A stretch of DNA of 64,000 nucleotides. It comes from Bacillota bacterium. GTDB taxonomy: Bacteria; Bacillota; Dehalobacteriia; UBA4068. The position numbers and the translations under genes are program-made. The notes below the pieces were generated by a model. It ran no database searches. It saw only the letters and a list, made by a program, of their open reading frames with translations, and was not told the origin of the DNA. Positions within the stretch are counted from its first letter, which is position 1; each line of letters opens with the position of its first letter. Of the stretch, positions 6,083 to 63,929 are shown piece by piece. Where the stretch lies: positions 6,357 through 70,356 of the forward strand of contig JAVBKT010000017.1 in NCBI GenBank assembly GCA_031553915.1. The letters run 5' to 3'.

Positions 6083-6410
6083 AACCCACCTCCTTGCTGA
6101 AATTATAACATAAAATAGTAATATCTTCCAAATATAGCATTTAACCCTTTGATTTGCTATTCCAGCGGGAGTTTTCAACAATGCCAAATCAGTTACAAAT
6201 ATGAAATTTAGCAAAAGTTTTTATAAATAGCAGTGATTTTACCATGTTATTATGTTATAATGGCTGCTAAGAACAAAATCCAAATTAGATTCTAGCCTCT
6301 ATTTTAGCCAATCGTTTTTTCGTAATAGTTTTATTTTTCCAGAAGAATTAATGACAACATGCGTATCGAAATTCAAGCAAACAACTCTCAAAAATAATCG
6401 GGGTGTGAAA

Positions 6411-30340: not shown

Positions 30341-30378
30341 AATAACAGCTAATTAAAGAAATTTAATTAGCTGTTATT
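30341..30378. terminator. Bidirectional terminator between hycI and lexA
   Basis: AATAACAGCTAATTAAA-GAAA-TTTAATTAGCTGTTATT. Confidence 0.75.
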
Positions 30379-31021
30379 ATTTAAGCTTGCGGAAAAGACC
30401 AATAGGCTTACCAAGTATTTCCATATGATCAGTATAAATAGGCTGCAGGAGATGATTTTCCGGCTGCAGACGGAAACGGTTTGTTTCGCGATAAAAAGTT
30501 TTAACCGTAGCCTCATCATCAATACAGGCTACTACAACATCGCCGTTTCTGGCGCTATTAGTTTCCTCTACAATCAGCAAATCGCCATCTTCAATGCCAA
30601 CTTCAATCATGCTCTCGCCATTAACCCGCAGCATAAAAAGCTGTTTGTTAGAATTGACAAAATTAAGCGGTACCGGAAAATAATCTTCAATATTTTCTTC
30701 CGCATAGGCCGGCTGCCCGGCACTCACTTTACCAATGAGCGGGATATCGACTATTTCCTGCTTGGCAAGAGTTGAAGAGGAGGGGAGAGTGTCTTCAACA
30801 GGCCATTTGAGAACTTCCATGGCCCGTCTTTTCAAGGGGTCTTTGCGGATATAACCCTTTCTTTCCAATGCGTCAATATGAAACTGCACGCTCGAAGTGG
30901 AACTCAGGCCGACTGCCTGGCCAATTTCACGTACTGAGGGAGGATATCCCTTGGTTTTTATCTGAGATTTAATGTAGTCAAATATTTCAGCTTGTTTAGG
31001 GTTTAGATCAAAATAATCCAT
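30377..31021 (-). CDS. lexA: SOS repressor LexA
   Basis: GYPPSVREIG wHTH, AG cleavage site (VSAGQP), catalytic GESM and ATVK; GGAGG RBS before ATG 31021. Confidence 0.96.
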   Translation of the reverse strand: MDYFDLNPKQAEIFDYIKSQIKTKGYPPSVREIGQAVGLSSTSSVQFHIDALERKGYIRKDPLKRRAMEVLKWPVEDTLPSSSTLAKQEIVDIPLIGKVSAGQPAYAEENIEDYFPVPLNFVNSNKQLFMLRVNGESMIEVGIEDGDLLIVEETNSARNGDVVVACIDDEATVKTFYRETNRFRLQPENHLLQPIYTDHMEILGKPIGLFRKLK

Positions 31022-31077
31022 ATTTCCACCTCCATAGAACAATCTATACTCATTATAGCACATCTTTTGCAAAAAGC

Positions 31078-31150
31078 AAACATTTGTTCATAAATTTTTC
31101 TTGACAAGGAACAAATGTTTGGGTATAATGCAAATATGGAACAAACGTTC
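31078..31150 (+). promoter_or_regulatory. Consensus SigA promoter of yneA with three Firmicute SOS (LexA) boxes
   Basis: TTGACA(31101)-17bp-TATAAT(31124); GAAC-N4-GTTC-type boxes at 31078-31089 (AAACATTTGTTC), 31109-31120 (GAACAAATGTTT) and 31139-31150 (GAACAAACGTTC). Confidence 0.9.
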
Positions 31151-31173
31151 ACGTATTAGTGGAGGAGTATGAT

Positions 31174-31476
31174 ATGAAAAAATCAATTAAAAGGCCAAGA
31201 AAATTGCGTTGTTTAATGGCGATAATTGCCTTTAGTTTGGTTGTCGTTTTAATGGTGTCCGGTTTTTCGGCACAAGCAGATGCCAATAATTTTACTAGTG
31301 AAAGAAAATTTACACCGGTATATGTGGTTTCCGGTGATACGCTTTGGAGCCTTGTGGAAGAGTATTATGATTATCAAGGGGATATCCGTAAGGCTATTAA
31401 TGAAGTGAAGAAAATAAACAATCTTGATAACGCCTCGATTCAGCAAGGGCAAATTATTTATATACCGGAAGCATAA
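31174..31476 (+). CDS. yneA: YneA-like SOS cell-division inhibitor (TM + LysM)
   Basis: Divergent from lexA; N-terminal TM; LysM motif VVSGDTLWSL...INNL...IQQGQIIYIP. Confidence 0.85.
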   Translation: MKKSIKRPRKLRCLMAIIAFSLVVVLMVSGFSAQADANNFTSERKFTPVYVVSGDTLWSLVEEYYDYQGDIRKAINEVKKINNLDNASIQQGQIIYIPEA

Positions 31477-31492
31477 GCTGCGCAGACAGAGC

Positions 31493-32971
31493 ATGTTTGT
31501 CAATACTTATTTCTTCTTTGTTCCTAATCGCTTAGTATGGGAACATTGGCAGCAGTTTATGGGTGAAAACACTGATTCTGCTTGGATTCCTCAGGTTGAA
31601 TATGAGATTCCTCAAATTGTTTCTCCAGCTGGTGGCTGGACTGTTGGTACTATTGCTGATTATTTTGGTATTCCTACTGGTGTTGCTGGTCTCTCTGTGT
31701 CGGCTCTTCCTTTTAGAGCCTATGCTTTAATTATGAATGATTGGTTTCGTGATGAAAATCTATCTAATCCTTTGAATATACCTGTTAATGATACTACTGT
31801 TACAGGTGTTAATAGTGGTGTTTTTGTTACTGATGTAGTTAAAGGCGGTAAGCCTTATATAGCTGCTAAATATCATGATTACTTTACATCTTGTCTTCCT
31901 GGTCCCCAAAAAGGCCCTAATGTGTCTATCGGTCTTGCTGGTGATGTACCTGTCTTTGGTAATGGACAGCAGCTTGGTTTAGTATCTAAAACTTTACCCG
32001 TTGGTGGATCTACACAGTATCTTGGTCTCGCTGGTACTACTGATAGTAAAATTGGTTTATCTGGTAGTGTGAATAATGAAATTGGATCTTCTATAAATTC
32101 TGGTGCTATGTATGCAAATCGTGCATCTGGTGTACCATCAAAAGAAATGTTAGATTTCGCTGATTATCCTTATGAACAAACTGGTCTTGTCGCTGATCTT
32201 GGTCTTGCTTCTTCTATCTCTGTTAATTCTCTTCGTCTTGCTTTCCAAATTCAAAAGTTATATGAGAAAGATGCTAGAGGAGGCACTCGCTATATTGAAT
32301 TACTTAAGGCTCATTTTGGTGTTACTTCTCCTGATGCTCGTCTCCAGCGTCCTGAATATCTTGGCGGAAATCGTTTGCCTATTAATATTAATCAGGTAGT
32401 GCAAAATTCTGAAACTGCTGAAACTCCTCAAGGTAATGTTGCTGGTTATTCTGTTACTACTGATACTCATAGTGATTTTACTAAATCTTTTGTTGAACAT
32501 GGCTATATCATTGGTGTTGCTGTTGCTCGCTATACTCATACGTATCAGCAAGGTTTACAACGCTTCTGGTCGCGGAAAGATCGTTTTGATTATTATTGGC
32601 CTGTCCTTGCTAATATTGGTGAACAGCCTGTCCTTAATAAAGAGATATATGCTCAAGGTAATGCTACTGATGATGAGGTTTTTGGTTACCAAGAGGCTTG
32701 GGCTGATTATCGTTATAAACCGTCTATTGTTACTGGTGAAATGCGTTCTCAATATGATATGTCGTTGGATTCTTGGCATCTCGCGGATGATTATGCTGCG
32801 CTTCCTATGCTTTCTAGTACTTGGATAATAGAGGATAAATCGAATGTTGATAGAACTTTAGCTATACAGAGTTCTATATCTAATCAATTTTTTGGTGATT
32901 TTTTCTTCCAGTGCAAAACTACTCGGCCTATGCCTATGTATAGTATTCCTGGGCTAATTGATCACCACTAA
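31493..32971 (+). CDS. Microvirus major capsid protein VP1, 5'-truncated but open
   Basis: FFFVPNRLVWEHW..FMGEN, ALPFRAYALI.NDWFRDENL, HDYFTSCLP.PQKG, DARGGTRY.E, RLQRPEYLGG, FGYQEAWADYR, RPMPMYSIPGLIDH; the usual N-terminal segment before this motif block is absent. Confidence 0.93.
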   Translation: MFVNTYFFFVPNRLVWEHWQQFMGENTDSAWIPQVEYEIPQIVSPAGGWTVGTIADYFGIPTGVAGLSVSALPFRAYALIMNDWFRDENLSNPLNIPVNDTTVTGVNSGVFVTDVVKGGKPYIAAKYHDYFTSCLPGPQKGPNVSIGLAGDVPVFGNGQQLGLVSKTLPVGGSTQYLGLAGTTDSKIGLSGSVNNEIGSSINSGAMYANRASGVPSKEMLDFADYPYEQTGLVADLGLASSISVNSLRLAFQIQKLYEKDARGGTRYIELLKAHFGVTSPDARLQRPEYLGGNRLPININQVVQNSETAETPQGNVAGYSVTTDTHSDFTKSFVEHGYIIGVAVARYTHTYQQGLQRFWSRKDRFDYYWPVLANIGEQPVLNKEIYAQGNATDDEVFGYQEAWADYRYKPSIVTGEMRSQYDMSLDSWHLADDYAALPMLSSTWIIEDKSNVDRTLAIQSSISNQFFGDFFFQCKTTRPMPMYSIPGLIDHH

Positions 32972-32983
32972 GGAGTGATTTTA

Positions 32984-33070
32984 ATGGATACTATTAAAAA
33001 AGTTTTTAAGGTGTTTATTTGGTTTATGCTTATTATGTGTGTTTTTTATCTTCTAGGTTTGCTTTTATAA
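32984..33070 (+). CDS. 28-aa single-TM phage peptide (MDTIKKVFKVFIWFMLIMCVFYLLGLLL)
   Basis: Translated by hand; AGGAG RBS overlaps the VP1 stop; its TAA overlaps the AAGGAGG RBS of VP2. Confidence 0.7.
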   Translation: MDTIKKVFKVFIWFMLIMCVFYLLGLLL

Positions 33071-33082
33071 GGAGGTTAAATT

Positions 33083-33961
33083 ATGGCTGTTTATCAAGCC
33101 GGTTCTGATGGTAATGCGCCTTCTGGTTTAAATCCCGGTGATTATGTTAATACTAATGGCGGTATGTATATGGTAGCCTCTCCTGGTGCTTATGGTTCTA
33201 TTTATAATCCGTCTTCTGGTTATTGGTCTGTTAAGGCTGATGGTTCTAGTCAGGTTTCTAATCAATCTTATTTGCAGTCCGCTCTTAATGCTGCTTCTAC
33301 TGTTGCTGAGTCTAATACTGATAGGTCTCAAGATATGGCTCGTGAGCAAATGGGCTTTCAAAAAGAGCAAAATGCTAGAGCTATGGCTTTTAATTCTGAG
33401 GAGGCACAAAAAAATCGTTCTTGGCAGGAAATGATGTCTAATACTGCTCATCAAAGAGAGGTAAAAGACTTAATTGCTGCTGGTATTAATCCTATTCTTA
33501 CTGCTACTGGAGGCAGTGGTGCTGCTGTAACATCTGGCGCCACTGCTTCTGGTGTTACTTCTTCTGGTGCTCAAGGTCAAGTGGATACGTCTTATAATAA
33601 TCTTGTTGGTGGTCTTATTTCTACGATGCTGAATAATCAGACATCTTTGGATATAGCAAAGCTGCAGGCTGGTATTCAGCAATATGTTGCTGATTCTAAT
33701 CGTCAAGCGACGCTCGGTGCTGCTGGTACTTCTGCTGCGGCATTGCTTGGAGCTGCTAATATTAATTCTGATACTTCCAAGTATATTAACCAACAAACTT
33801 TGGATCGTCCTAATTCTGTTGGTGGTATCGCTCGCCGTGGTTTAGAGTCTCTTAGTGAACTTATTGATAGTGGAATTAATTCTGCAAAAGGTTTGTTTTC
33901 TGGTTTTAATTGGAATGCTATTGCCGGCGGTCGTGATCTTACTGCCGGTAAAAAAAAGTGA
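33083..33961 (+). CDS. Microvirus DNA pilot protein VP2 (H-like)
   Basis: AQKNRSWQEMMSNTAHQREVKDLIAAGINPIL hallmark; Ala/Gln/Ser-rich coiled-coil; AAGGAGG RBS. Confidence 0.88.
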   Translation: MAVYQAGSDGNAPSGLNPGDYVNTNGGMYMVASPGAYGSIYNPSSGYWSVKADGSSQVSNQSYLQSALNAASTVAESNTDRSQDMAREQMGFQKEQNARAMAFNSEEAQKNRSWQEMMSNTAHQREVKDLIAAGINPILTATGGSGAAVTSGATASGVTSSGAQGQVDTSYNNLVGGLISTMLNNQTSLDIAKLQAGIQQYVADSNRQATLGAAGTSAAALLGAANINSDTSKYINQQTLDRPNSVGGIARRGLESLSELIDSGINSAKGLFSGFNWNAIAGGRDLTAGKKK

Positions 33962-33971
33962 AAAAAATTTG

Positions 33972-34026
33972 ACCGGCTTTGCCGGTTATGTCATGGGGCC
34001 CCATTCTTCTCTTGATGTAATGGGGC
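33972..34026 (+). other. Putative rolling-circle origin hairpins of the microvirus
   Basis: Stem GCCCCATT/AATGGGGC around loop CTTCTCTTGATGT (CTTGAT core, as at the phiX174 nick site); a second hairpin ACCGGC-TTT-GCCGGT. Confidence 0.6.
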
Positions 34027-34074
34027 TAAGTGACACCAAATTACCTAAAACAGAGTAGAGGAGGTGAGAACCTT

Positions 34075-34902
34075 GTGTCTTGTTATCATCCTCTGAAAGG
34101 TTTTCAGATTGGTCTTACCCCTTCGGGTAAGCCTGATTATAAAATAGTTTCTTATGATACTGATCATGTTGAAATTAAATTTAATGGTAGTGCAGATGCT
34201 TGTCCGTCGGCCACGCGCTCCGCTTATGCCAGACGTATTGTGACTGACTTTATCGAGATTCCTTGTGGTAGGTGTATTGGTTGTCGTCTTGATTATTCTA
34301 GACAATGGGCAGATAGGTGTATTCTTGAAATGAAAGAACACGATTCCAGTTATTTTGTTACTATCACTTATGATGATGAACATTTGCCCTTGCGTTCTTG
34401 GGTTGATACTGAGACTGGTGAATGTGGTAATGTTTCTACTTTGTTAAAGCGAGATTTCCAATTGTTTATGAAGCGTCTCCGTAAAGCTTATTCTCTTAAA
34501 TATTCTAATCCTTTGCGCTATTTTGCAGCAGGTGAATACGGTAATACTACTTTGCGTCCTCATTATCATGCTATAATATTTGGTTTAATTCTTGATGATC
34601 TTCAATTCTATAAAACATATAATGGATTTAATTACTATAATTCTGCGTTCTTAGATTCCTGTTGGCAAAATCGAGGTTTTATTGTCGTAGCAAAGGCATG
34701 TTGGGAGACGTGTGCTTATACTGCTCGTTATATCATGAAAAAACAAAAAGGAAATTCTGCTAGTGTTTACGAATATTATAATTTAGAACCCGAGTTTTCA
34801 TTGATGTCTAGAAAACCCGGAATAGGCCGTAGTTATTTCGACAAAAACGCCGATAATATATATTATGTTGAGTTGATATGTCTAAAAGATATCGCCAGTT
34901 AA
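34075..34902 (+). CDS. Microvirus replication initiator VP4 (HUH endonuclease); C-terminus runs through dif
   Basis: SCYHPL start after AGGAGGTG; PCGRCIGCRL; motif I FVTITY; motif II RPHYHAIIF; motif III YTARYIMKK; MSRKPGIG. Confidence 0.93.
   Translation: MSCYHPLKGFQIGLTPSGKPDYKIVSYDTDHVEIKFNGSADACPSATRSAYARRIVTDFIEIPCGRCIGCRLDYSRQWADRCILEMKEHDSSYFVTITYDDEHLPLRSWVDTETGECGNVSTLLKRDFQLFMKRLRKAYSLKYSNPLRYFAAGEYGNTTLRPHYHAIIFGLILDDLQFYKTYNGFNYYNSAFLDSCWQNRGFIVVAKACWETCAYTARYIMKKQKGNSASVYEYYNLEPEFSLMSRKPGIGRSYFDKNADNIYYVELICLKDIAS
34846..34873 (+). other. dif site (XerC/XerD-type), probable chromosome dimer-resolution site and prophage attR
   Basis: AACGCCGATAA-TATATA-TTATGTTGAGT has the 11-6-11 dif layout; gene orientation converges here. 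Confidence 0.85.
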
Positions 34903-35127
34903 AAGCATATTCTTTGACCCTTCCCTTTTTTAGTATATTATTTTATTGGTAACTACTAGAATAATATATTTATATTAGACCTTATTCATACTGTAGTGGC
35001 GTATATATATTAAGGGTAATAGCTTACCCTATGTTGTGGGGGCAGTTTTCCCCCGCCAGGTTCAGGCCTACTTACTGCACAATTATTATAATTGATAATG
35101 GGATTATGTCTATATTTACCTCTATCT

Positions 35128-36456
35128 TTATTGTTCAATTAACTGGCCGTAGAGGTTCCAAGTTTTTGCCTCAGTAATTTTGATTTGCACTAAGCTGCCG
35201 GAAGACAGCTCTCCTGCACCGGCAAAGGCCACAATTTTATTGCCGCTGGTGCGCCCGCACAACATATTATTGTTGTTTTTACTGATACCATCAACCATTA
35301 CTTCTTGTATGCTGCCCACGAGAGCCTGGTTTATTTGCAAGCTGATCGGGTTTTGTATATCCATTAACTCTTGCAGCCTTTGTTTTTTCACTAGTGAACT
35401 TAAATGCCCATCCATGTTAGCGGCTGTGGTACCGCTGCGTTTTGAATATAAAAAAGTATATGCCGCATCAAACCCGGCAGCTTTGATAAAGGCAATTGTC
35501 TCAGCAAAATCAGCGTCGCTTTCACCGGGAAAACCAACAATCAGGTCAGAGGTAATTGTTGCCTTAGGCGCTGTAGAGCGAATAATGCTCAGTTTAGAGA
35601 AATACTCCGCTGTGGTGTAGCCCCTATTCATTAGTTTTAAGATACGGTCTGAGCCTGATTGTACGGGCAAATGATAATGGTCGCATACTTTGTCCAGGCT
35701 GGCAATAGTCTCGGCCAAATAACGGTCAAAATCACGCGGGTGTGATGTCATATAGCGGATGCGATGCAGACCGCTGATATCGTTAATAGCAGTGAGCAAG
35801 CGGGCAAAATTCCAGCCGAGCTCAGGTATGTCTTTTCCGTAGGAATTGACATTTTGGCCTAAAAGCTGTATCTCCTTAATGCCGCCATCTGCCAGGCGTT
35901 TAATTTCGTCAATAATTTCTTGTGGTTGACGGCTGCGTTCTTTTCCCCTCACATAAGGCACAATGCAATAGCTGCAATAATTATTACAGCCAAAATTAAT
36001 ATTGATTTGTGCTTTATAATTATGCTCAAAATTATCATAGACTGCTGATAATTCCGGCCTGTCATAGCGCTCCTCAGTATCAACAATCCTTTGGCCATCC
36101 AAGTCATATTGTTCGATATATTGCGGCAGCAAAGCACTGGCAAAGGTGCCGATAATAATGCCGATATGGCGATATTTATCCATAAAAAGCTTGGCGACGC
36201 CATCTTTTTGCACCATGCAGCCGCACACAGCTATAATCAACTGAGGATTTACTTGTTTGAGATGTTTGATGCTGCCAATGAAGCCTAGCGCCCTGTTTTC
36301 GGCACTCTCGCGAATGCAGCAGGTATTAATGATAATAATATCTGCTTTTTCTACTGAATCACAAGCAATATGCCCTGCTGAATTAAGCATTGAGGACATA
36401 ATATGGGAATCATTTTCATTCATTTGACAACCAAAGGTTTGAATAAAATATCGCAT
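35128..36456 (-). CDS. miaB: tRNA methylthiotransferase MiaB
   Basis: TFGCQMN, NTCCIRE, CNNYCSYCIVP, C-terminal TRAM domain. Confidence 0.95.
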   Translation of the reverse strand: MRYFIQTFGCQMNENDSHIMSSMLNSAGHIACDSVEKADIIIINTCCIRESAENRALGFIGSIKHLKQVNPQLIIAVCGCMVQKDGVAKLFMDKYRHIGIIIGTFASALLPQYIEQYDLDGQRIVDTEERYDRPELSAVYDNFEHNYKAQININFGCNNYCSYCIVPYVRGKERSRQPQEIIDEIKRLADGGIKEIQLLGQNVNSYGKDIPELGWNFARLLTAINDISGLHRIRYMTSHPRDFDRYLAETIASLDKVCDHYHLPVQSGSDRILKLMNRGYTTAEYFSKLSIIRSTAPKATITSDLIVGFPGESDADFAETIAFIKAAGFDAAYTFLYSKRSGTTAANMDGHLSSLVKKQRLQELMDIQNPISLQINQALVGSIQEVMVDGISKNNNNMLCGRTSGNKIVAFAGAGELSSGSLVQIKITEAKTWNLYGQLIEQ

Positions 36457-63582: not shown

Positions 63583-63929
63583 TGGTGGAGCTGGGGGGAG
63601 TTGAACCCCCGTCCGAAAGACAACCCACAAGAGCATCTCCGAGCGCAGTATGTGATTTAGTCTCGCTCCGGCAGCGGCCACATACAGCCTCTGCCTTCGC
63701 ATGCCCTTAAGAATTCCCTCACTAGGCCAGGGCGCTCATAGTAAGGTGAGCCCATATTAATGACCCATCACAAGCCCTATGGGCGAGGTTTGGTCAGGGT
63801 TAGACTGCAATTAAGCAGCTAAAGCGTAATTTGGTTTGGCAAATAAATTTGCTTTTCGCGTTTACGGGCGCAGACACCCCGGCTCGCTTCTCTTGCCAAT
63901 CAATCCCCCGTCGAAACCGGTACAGCCCC
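63583..63929 (-). ncRNA. ssrA: tmRNA
   Basis: 5' GGGGCTGTACCGGTTTCGAC; 3' GGTTCAACTCCCCCCAGCTCCACCA; tag ORF AKPNYALAA*. Confidence 0.95.

Follow-up and report, generated by a model that had tools for sequence, protein, structure and literature searches.

The window analysed here is a stretch of 64,000 nucleotides (nt) from the genome of a Bacillota bacterium (Dehalobacteriia; UBA4068), positions 6,357 to 70,356 of contig JAVBKT010000017.1. Near its middle, between the host genes yneA and miaB, lies a piece of gokushovirus DNA that is truncated at both ends. It holds a major capsid protein gene (VP1) without its beginning, a complete pilot protein gene (VP2) and a replication initiator gene (Rep, also called VP4) that runs into the dif site of the chromosome, and it appears to be what is left of a prophage. 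The locus has the following features, in window coordinates:

30377..31021, minus strand: lexA, gene of the SOS repressor, divergent from yneA (Pfam LexA_DNA_bind and Peptidase_S24; NCBIfam TIGR00498, 231 bits, above the cut-off)

31078-31089, 31109-31120 and 31139-31150: three LexA boxes of the Cheo type, overlapping the yneA promoter

31101-31106 and 31124-31129: -35 and -10 elements of the yneA promoter, TTGACA-17-TATAAT

31174..31476, plus strand: yneA-like gene of an SOS cell-division inhibitor with a LysM domain (Pfam LysM, E 5.7e-5), with a strong Shine-Dalgarno sequence, GGAGGA

31477..31504, plus strand: interval of the deletion junction between host and phage DNA; it contains the ATG at 31493, has neither a Shine-Dalgarno sequence nor a terminator and is spanned by a contig from an RNA library (run X2)

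31493..32971, plus strand: major capsid protein VP1 with about 72 N-terminal residues gone (Pfam Phage_F, PHROG 514)

32975..33070, plus strand: hydrophobic open reading frame (ORF) of 31 residues between VP1 and VP2

33083..33961, plus strand: DNA pilot protein VP2, full length (PHROG pilot-protein families; Shine-Dalgarno sequence AGGAGG)

34030..34902, plus strand: replication initiator Rep/VP4 with the HUH and Tyr motifs kept (PF23343, phrog_942)

34846-34873, plus strand: dif, AACGCCGATAA-TATATA-TTATGTTGAGT, 28 nt, of the Firmicute type; the right attachment site, into which Rep reads

35128..36456, minus strand: miaB, the host gene beyond dif (NCBIfam TIGR01574, 468 bits)

All three proteins of the gokushovirus type are present, i.e. 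a capsid protein of the Phage_F family, the pilot protein VP2 and a rolling-circle Rep with the HUH motif. The ORF of 492 residues behind yneA matches Phage_F (PF02305) with an E value of 2e-155 and is 76% identical to full-length VP1 proteins from contigs of about 4.7 kb; no other copy of VP1 exists in the genome. The closest free phages share 76% identity in VP1, 62% in Rep and 51% in VP2. By tblastn, VP2 aligns along 93% of its length to its counterpart in KT264769 with 45.7% identity, and no VP2 of the phage collection is more than 51% identical to it. The alignment of Rep shows no variation in the HYH and YTARY motifs. Translation of Rep, which has the Shine-Dalgarno sequence GGAGGTG, probably starts at the GTG at 34075 rather than at 34030. 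Judged by their own ribosome-binding sites, both VP2 and Rep could be translated. In the intergenic region between these two genes there is a GC-rich hairpin, ACCGGC-TTT-GCCGGT (33972-33986), which scores as a terminator on the minus strand only and may be a regulatory or origin element of the phage.

An earlier model-made reading of this DNA (the first-pass annotation) had listed VP1, the small peptide, VP2 and Rep as free of stops and frameshifts. For VP1, VP2 and Rep this is confirmed by their alignments to the proteins of free phages. The 31-residue ORF, in contrast, has no match in Pfam or PHROG and no significant tblastn match in about 100 loci; it is not conserved and probably not a gene.

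The complete set of a microvirus (VP3, VP5, whole VP1 and Rep genes, on a circle of 4.5-6 kb) is not there. The nearest free phages are circles of 4.8-5.1 kb with about 70% DNA identity to the element and the gene order VP1-VP2-Rep-(hypothetical, VP5, nonstructural)-VP3. Neither the C-terminus of Rep nor VP5, the nonstructural protein, VP3 or the N-terminus of VP1 was found by tblastn anywhere in the whole 1.72-Mb genome, which is 98.6% complete (best E 0.18). The queries were taken from relatives and comprised Rep C-termini, VP5, the nonstructural protein, five VP3 proteins, two VP1 N-termini and the hypothetical protein of the free phage L002. As a positive control, the queries found each other in 5-8 of the 8 relatives' loci; only the hypothetical protein of L002 found no locus but its own. 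A profile search of the genome with PF09675, which was run without a positive control, gave no match. The missing parts are contiguous in the gene order of the free phages and absent genome-wide, which suggests that one arc of about 1.5-1.7 kb was lost from the phage circle. The first-pass annotation had seen no left dif, no C-terminal piece of Rep and no VP3 or VP5, and the controlled whole-genome search together with a scan for dif bears this out.

On the left side the loss ends directly behind yneA. The stop codon of yneA (31476) is followed after 16 nt by the ATG (31493) of the capsid ORF. The Phage_F profile is matched only from position 64 of 501, the match to PHROG 514 starts at position 77 of 531, and 72 residues are absent relative to the nearest full-length homologue (P0002, 576 residues). 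Thus ORF positions and alignments agree with the earlier description of a VP1 of 492 residues that lacks its N-terminal segment and opens 16 nt past the yneA stop. At residues 2-4 the truncated VP1 has F, V and N, whereas 119 homologues have Y, L and D, invariant or nearly so (at least 117 of 119). This places the breakpoint somewhere within 31477-31504, and the ATG at 31493 may be fortuitous and not native VP1 sequence.

The VP1 ATG has no Shine-Dalgarno sequence before it, whereas VP2 and Rep have strong ones. Translation of VP1 could hence start only by re-initiation after yneA and could be at most weak. In the deleted segment, an AlphaFold model of a full-length homologue predicts three beta-strands (residues 21-62) with a predicted local distance difference test (pLDDT) score of about 75; the model is of low confidence as a whole (mean pLDDT 49.8), and only these N-terminal strands were used. 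The deleted N-terminus also overlaps the stretch that aligns to residues 23-98 of the F protein of phiX174. With the strands and the segment alignable to phiX174 F lost, the truncated VP1 is unlikely to make a functional capsid protein.

The genome contains no full dif other than the one at 34846-34873, and the maximum of the cumulative GC skew, at 34-36 kb, coincides with it. The host encodes one XerC (336.6 bits) and one XerD (336.1 bits), both above their family cut-offs, and among the ORFs of the insert there is no integrase or recombinase gene. In two genomes of the same genus (G003 and G004) and in a further member of the family (G009) the order lexA, yneA, dif, miaB is found without a phage and with an identical dif core; VP1 was detected in none of 100 relatives. 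Since the relatives hold an empty dif at this locus, the insert is best regarded as a prophage of the XerCD/dif type minus its left third and its left dif. Indeed no second dif was found near the left end of the remnant, so that the phage DNA is not flanked by two sites. With a single dif left, excision is not possible, in agreement with the first-pass annotation, which had called the element non-excisable.

Integration of gokushoviruses at dif by XerCD has been shown experimentally (in passages of PMC7062461). By analogy, a gokushovirus would have integrated here via the host XerC and XerD at the chromosomal dif just 3' of the SOS gene yneA. A single deletion, about 1.6-1.9 kb long, would then have taken away the left dif copy, a short piece of host DNA following yneA and the part of the phage circle that runs from the Rep C-terminus over VP5 and VP3 to the VP1 N-terminus, leaving about 3.4 kb with the truncated VP1, VP2 and the truncated Rep. 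These remaining genes would most likely be transcribed by read-through from the LexA-controlled yneA promoter. As scaffold, VP5 and the capsid N-terminus are gone, no virions can be made. In short, we consider the element to be probably a defective gokushovirus (Microviridae) prophage remnant, non-excisable and of recent origin, which is transcribed passively and would have no adaptive role.

For the right end of the remnant there are two explanations. The Rep ORF has 290 residues, and its homology to the Rep of free phages stops at about residue 279-285, inside dif. The conserved C-terminal 60-75 residues or so are absent, and a short tail read through dif stands in their place. One explanation is that the attachment site lay inside rep. 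Integration itself would then have split Rep at codon 274-283, and a single deletion, on the left, would suffice. Otherwise the site would have been downstream of rep, and a further loss would have occurred on the right-hand side. We give the site inside rep somewhat less than an even chance. It would explain why homology to the free-phage Rep extends to dif and ends there, and passages of PMC7062461 describe dif motifs at the 5' and 3' ends of genes and, in some Escherichia prophages, in the N-terminus of VP4. The reading frame through the XerC arm and the spacer gives A-D-N-I-Y, where relatives have K-D-E-L-Y or K-D-I-Y; however, a host-type dif in the same frame also gives I-Y (dif of G003), and the match is thus not discriminating. 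None of the 82 free-phage loci has more than 19 matches to the 28 positions of dif, which speaks against such a site. So do related prophages: in two of them (L016 and L019) Rep is complete and stands at the right end, with the repeat pair of L016 about 480 nt past Rep, and in two others (L015 and L021) the cut separates VP2 from Rep. KT264769 has a weak dif-like site in its VP4 gene, which was considered as the ancestral attachment site and rejected; its position is 33 codons further along, and chance may account for it.

Because the genome is of metagenomic origin, and wrong binning is frequent for contigs of microviruses (passages of PMC9239249), the phage DNA might also be a free microvirus contig that was joined to a bacterial contig by mistake. 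Public sequencing runs bear on this. One DNA run (X1), probably the source of the assembly, contains the stretch, and an RNA-library run of the same study with another sample code (X2) contains 30% of its sequence words. Among the Logan contigs of X2, one of 335 nt (31213-31547) spans the yneA stop and the VP1 start with 0 mismatches; a Logan contig of X1 with 8238 nt matches 31580-36456, also with 0 mismatches, and spans Rep, dif and miaB. Both junctions, yneA/VP1 and Rep-dif-miaB, are therefore present in sequence data other than the submitted assembly, albeit from a single study.

The contig data also contain signs of a second sequence. The Logan unitigs break at 31518-31609 in the DNA and the RNA-library runs, and a 90-nt piece there is covered about twice as deeply as its flanks (20.5 versus 10.8 and 10.8 versus 6.5). 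The doubled depth indicates that another sequence in the samples has the same 90 nt, which belong to the most conserved segment of VP1; we tentatively read it as a related microvirus. A 120-nt contig of X2 consists of 31518-31607 followed once more by 31518-31547. At 32910, one contig of X1 and one of X2 match up to this position and then continue into the same unrelated sequence, probably from another microvirus of the community that has the VP1 C-terminal region in common with the remnant.

The unitig break and the shared 90 nt would suit a wrong join. Yet the left junction was recovered from another library with another sample code and the right one from an independent contig of 8.2 kb, each without a mismatch. 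Moreover, the insert sits exactly at the conserved dif and the GC-skew switch of the locus, and it is a truncated arc and not a whole circle. An artefact of assembly or binning is thus highly improbable.

Two further X2 contigs match the element with 0 mismatches, one in the 5' part of VP2 (33012-33428) and one in the middle of Rep (34199-34704). The RNA-library contigs give neither strand nor level, and they do not prove an RNA origin, an induction or a single transcript. The three exact patches of X2 all lie inside the span from yneA to Rep, but this is not significant (by our estimate about 0.2 by chance). X2 is without specific cover over the lexA and miaB parts, and a third run (X3) has next to no words of the stretch, which is evidence in neither direction.

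The position behind yneA places the phage genes next to an SOS-type control region. Within 30900-35300 the promoter at 31101-31129 is the sole TTGACA-17-TATAAT with 12 of 12 matches. The 64-kb window contains eight sites of the form GAAC-N4-GTTC with at most one mismatch; three of them lie at 31078-31150, and one of these three is the sole perfect site of the window. Hence the scans for promoters and boxes support the first-pass annotation, which had described a perfect promoter with three LexA boxes. The layout of the boxes is alike in G003, G004 and G009. The product of the yneA-like gene has a LysM domain and its gene is divergent from lexA; against the NCBIfam model of YneA (NF010723) it reaches 57.1 bits.

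The lexA-yneA SOS module of Bacillus subtilis was reportedly described by Kawai and colleagues in 2003. The module resembles the one in the window in its divergent lexA and yneA genes, in the LexA boxes of a common control region and in the LysM domain of YneA. It differs in that, in the family of the present host, dif lies directly 3' of yneA, an arrangement that is not known from B. subtilis, and in that the score of the host YneA is below the cut-off of NF010723, which is 60 bits.

In 19 of the 22 lexA loci of relatives a dif-like 28-mer (at most 2 mismatches in 13 core positions) was found, at a distance of -2 to 346 nt past the first ORF beside lexA. These ORFs were taken by position and not each checked for homology to YneA, and two of the three loci without a dif-like site have less than 600 nt of flank. 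The lexA-yneA module and the chromosome dimer-resolution site are neighbours throughout the family (loci L005-L007 and L116-L131). The three relatives scanned have no predicted terminator from yneA to dif; in G003 one with a 14-bp stem follows just beyond dif. The yneA transcript would thus normally cross dif, and phages that integrate on that side in the same orientation would be exposed to read-through.

This changes the interpretation of the SOS linkage. In the first-pass annotation it was the deletion that placed the phage genes under the SOS promoter. However, with dif 0-350 nt behind the ORF on the yneA side in 19 of 22 loci and no terminator in between, an intact prophage would lie in the path of read-through just as well. 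Going by the arrangement in the relatives, the deletion shortened the distance between yneA and the phage genes; it did not create the linkage. What stands of the proposed SOS-inducible cassette is the arrangement itself: the phage genes are co-directional and follow an SOS promoter and gene by 16 nt, the terminator scan, in line with the earlier claim, predicts none from the yneA stop to the VP1 ATG (a stretch of 16 nt is too short for one), and an X2 contig crosses the junction. It is therefore plausible that transcripts from the SOS promoter extend into the phage genes.

The recent origin of the remnant is suggested by its composition and its conserved residues. In the three phage genes the GC content of third codon positions (GC3) is 0.20-0.25 and the corresponding T content (T3) 0.55-0.65, equal to the free phage L002; host genes have a GC3 of 0.33-0.49 and a T3 of 0.32-0.39. 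Away from the junction, VP1 differs in 4 of about 234 conserved columns, and 39 free homologues range from 0 to 19. In a quick and unfinished tree, which took in 36 of the 120 listed proteins, the terminal branch of VP1 has a length of 0.55; its siblings from free phages have 0.53 and 0.64. Of the two scenarios that the first-pass annotation had offered, the one it gave as the alternative, a simple recent deletion, fits composition, conserved columns and branch length best.

Several observations do not favour a passive remnant. The three phage ORFs are free of stops across 3.4 kb, and the ribosome-binding sites of VP2 and Rep are still strong. yneA escaped the deletion by 16 nt, and an ATG in frame is left. 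Contigs of the RNA library cover not only the junction but also the 5' part of VP2 and the middle of Rep. All this would equally fit a cassette that is selected and expressed.

Such a cassette, possibly acting in defence by exclusion or a dominant-negative capsid, had been proposed in the first-pass annotation. In this reading the host would keep the remnant as an SOS-inducible defence, and VP2, perhaps together with a dominant-negative capsid protein, would exclude related microviruses from damaged cells. The intact ORFs, the AGGAGG in front of VP2, the co-directional position 16 nt behind an SOS promoter and gene without a terminator, and the RNA-library contigs over the junction, VP2 and Rep are in line with it. 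A precedent is the reported part of the gokushovirus pilot protein in superinfection exclusion (Kirchberger et al. 2021, as cited in passages of PMC9512667); by analogy, VP2 from a resident element could exclude incoming relatives. That case concerns complete enterobacterial prophages, however, and the VP2 of the remnant is at most 51% identical to those of the phage collection.

We nevertheless consider a domesticated cassette unlikely. There is no sign of selection, with element and host known from one assembly: among 5.8 billion clustered proteins, neither the truncated VP1 nor the host yneA is found on more than one contig, and the exact 36-nt pattern of the junction has no match in metagenome contigs of the JGI. 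The composition is phage-like and not shifted toward that of the host, and VP1 is without a ribosome-binding site and has altered codons at the junction. PADLOC assigned none of the four proteins submitted to a defence family. The SOS linkage, finally, is due to the position of dif behind yneA and not to the deletion. Intact ORFs, ribosome-binding sites, RNA-library cover and a tidy breakpoint are explained equally well by recency, so that domestication gains no positive support from them, and the claim of a defence cassette is not supported.

The crippled prophage in the window can be compared with several known systems. The Enterogokushovirus prophages (e.g. EC6098; Kirchberger and Ochman 2020, passages of PMC7062461) likewise have no integrase of their own, lie beside the chromosomal dif, depend on XerC and XerD and carry VP1, VP2 and VP4. 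They are complete, however, have two dif motifs, integrate reversibly and have their cut either between VP2 and VP4 or at the VP4 N-terminus. The element of the window lacks one dif and a third of its genome, is unbroken from VP2 to Rep, has a Rep that terminates in dif and belongs to a host that is probably a monoderm Firmicute. The proviruses BMV1-7 of Bacteroidetes (Krupovic and Forterre 2011, passages of PMC3091885) are also Microviridae with dif-like flanks and no integrase gene; they belong to another subfamily and another host phylum, and the passages describe no SOS gene beside the site. Microvirus DNA in Gram-positive chromosomes is known from Firmicutes such as Erysipelatoclostridium and Mammaliicoccus sciuri (passages of PMC9239249).

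Four loci found in the present analysis, from Oscillibacter (L015 and L021), Christensenella (L016) and L019, also represent microvirus DNA in chromosomes of Gram-positive lineages. Unlike the remnant, which is truncated at both ends, L015, L016 and L019 have VP3, a full-length VP1 (565-575 residues) and a complete Rep (335-356 residues). L021 differs by a complete Rep, VP3 and the VP1 N-terminus; its contig ends inside VP1. Both Oscillibacter prophages (L015:5549-10380 and L021:4526-8450) have the order Rep-...-VP3-VP1-VP2, with the cut between VP2 and Rep, and in L021 a tyrosine-recombinase gene (335 residues) directly adjoins the prophage. The prophage of the Christensenella bin L016, with the order VP3-VP1-VP2-complete Rep, is flanked by 31-nt repeats at L016:6330-6360 and L016:11527-11557, 5197 bp apart. 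The right repeat, downstream of Rep, is an 11-6-11 palindrome, TATTCGTAAAA TACAGG TTTTACGAATA, and looks like a different dif-like attachment site.

Far from the element, at 63583-63929 of the window, ARAGORN predicts a transfer-messenger RNA (tmRNA) with the tag peptide AKSKFICQTKLRFSCLIAV. The usual tmRNA tags end differently, and the prediction of this one may be wrong.

Taken by itself the remnant is nothing out of the ordinary, since prophages of microviruses have been described at dif before and defective prophages occur widely. By its gene content and site it adds a new, defective case to the gokushovirus prophages already known to integrate at dif, and its host is unusual. The 98.6% complete genome (G000) gives no match to LpxC, which makes a monoderm Firmicute the probable host. 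A provirus, defective or not, is a record of a past infection (passages of PMC3091885), and microviruses of Gram-positive bacteria have rarely been documented (passages of PMC9239249). The remnant thus indicates that a microvirus once infected a Firmicute, probably a monoderm one, of an invertebrate gut, a kind of host for which such records are scarce.

A more general meaning may lie in the locus. As lexA, yneA and dif follow each other in 19 of 22 loci of relatives, phages that integrate on that side of dif would come to lie in the path of an SOS-controlled transcript. A microvirus that uses XerCD and has neither repressor nor integrase could thereby become SOS-inducible by position alone, in the orientation set by dif behind yneA, and even the remnant might still be switched on by damage and provide exclusion through VP2. 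We regard this as a rather improbable extension of our findings: the conserved architecture suggests it, but the single case observed is crippled. If true, it would be a simple route by which phages without a repressor sense DNA damage.

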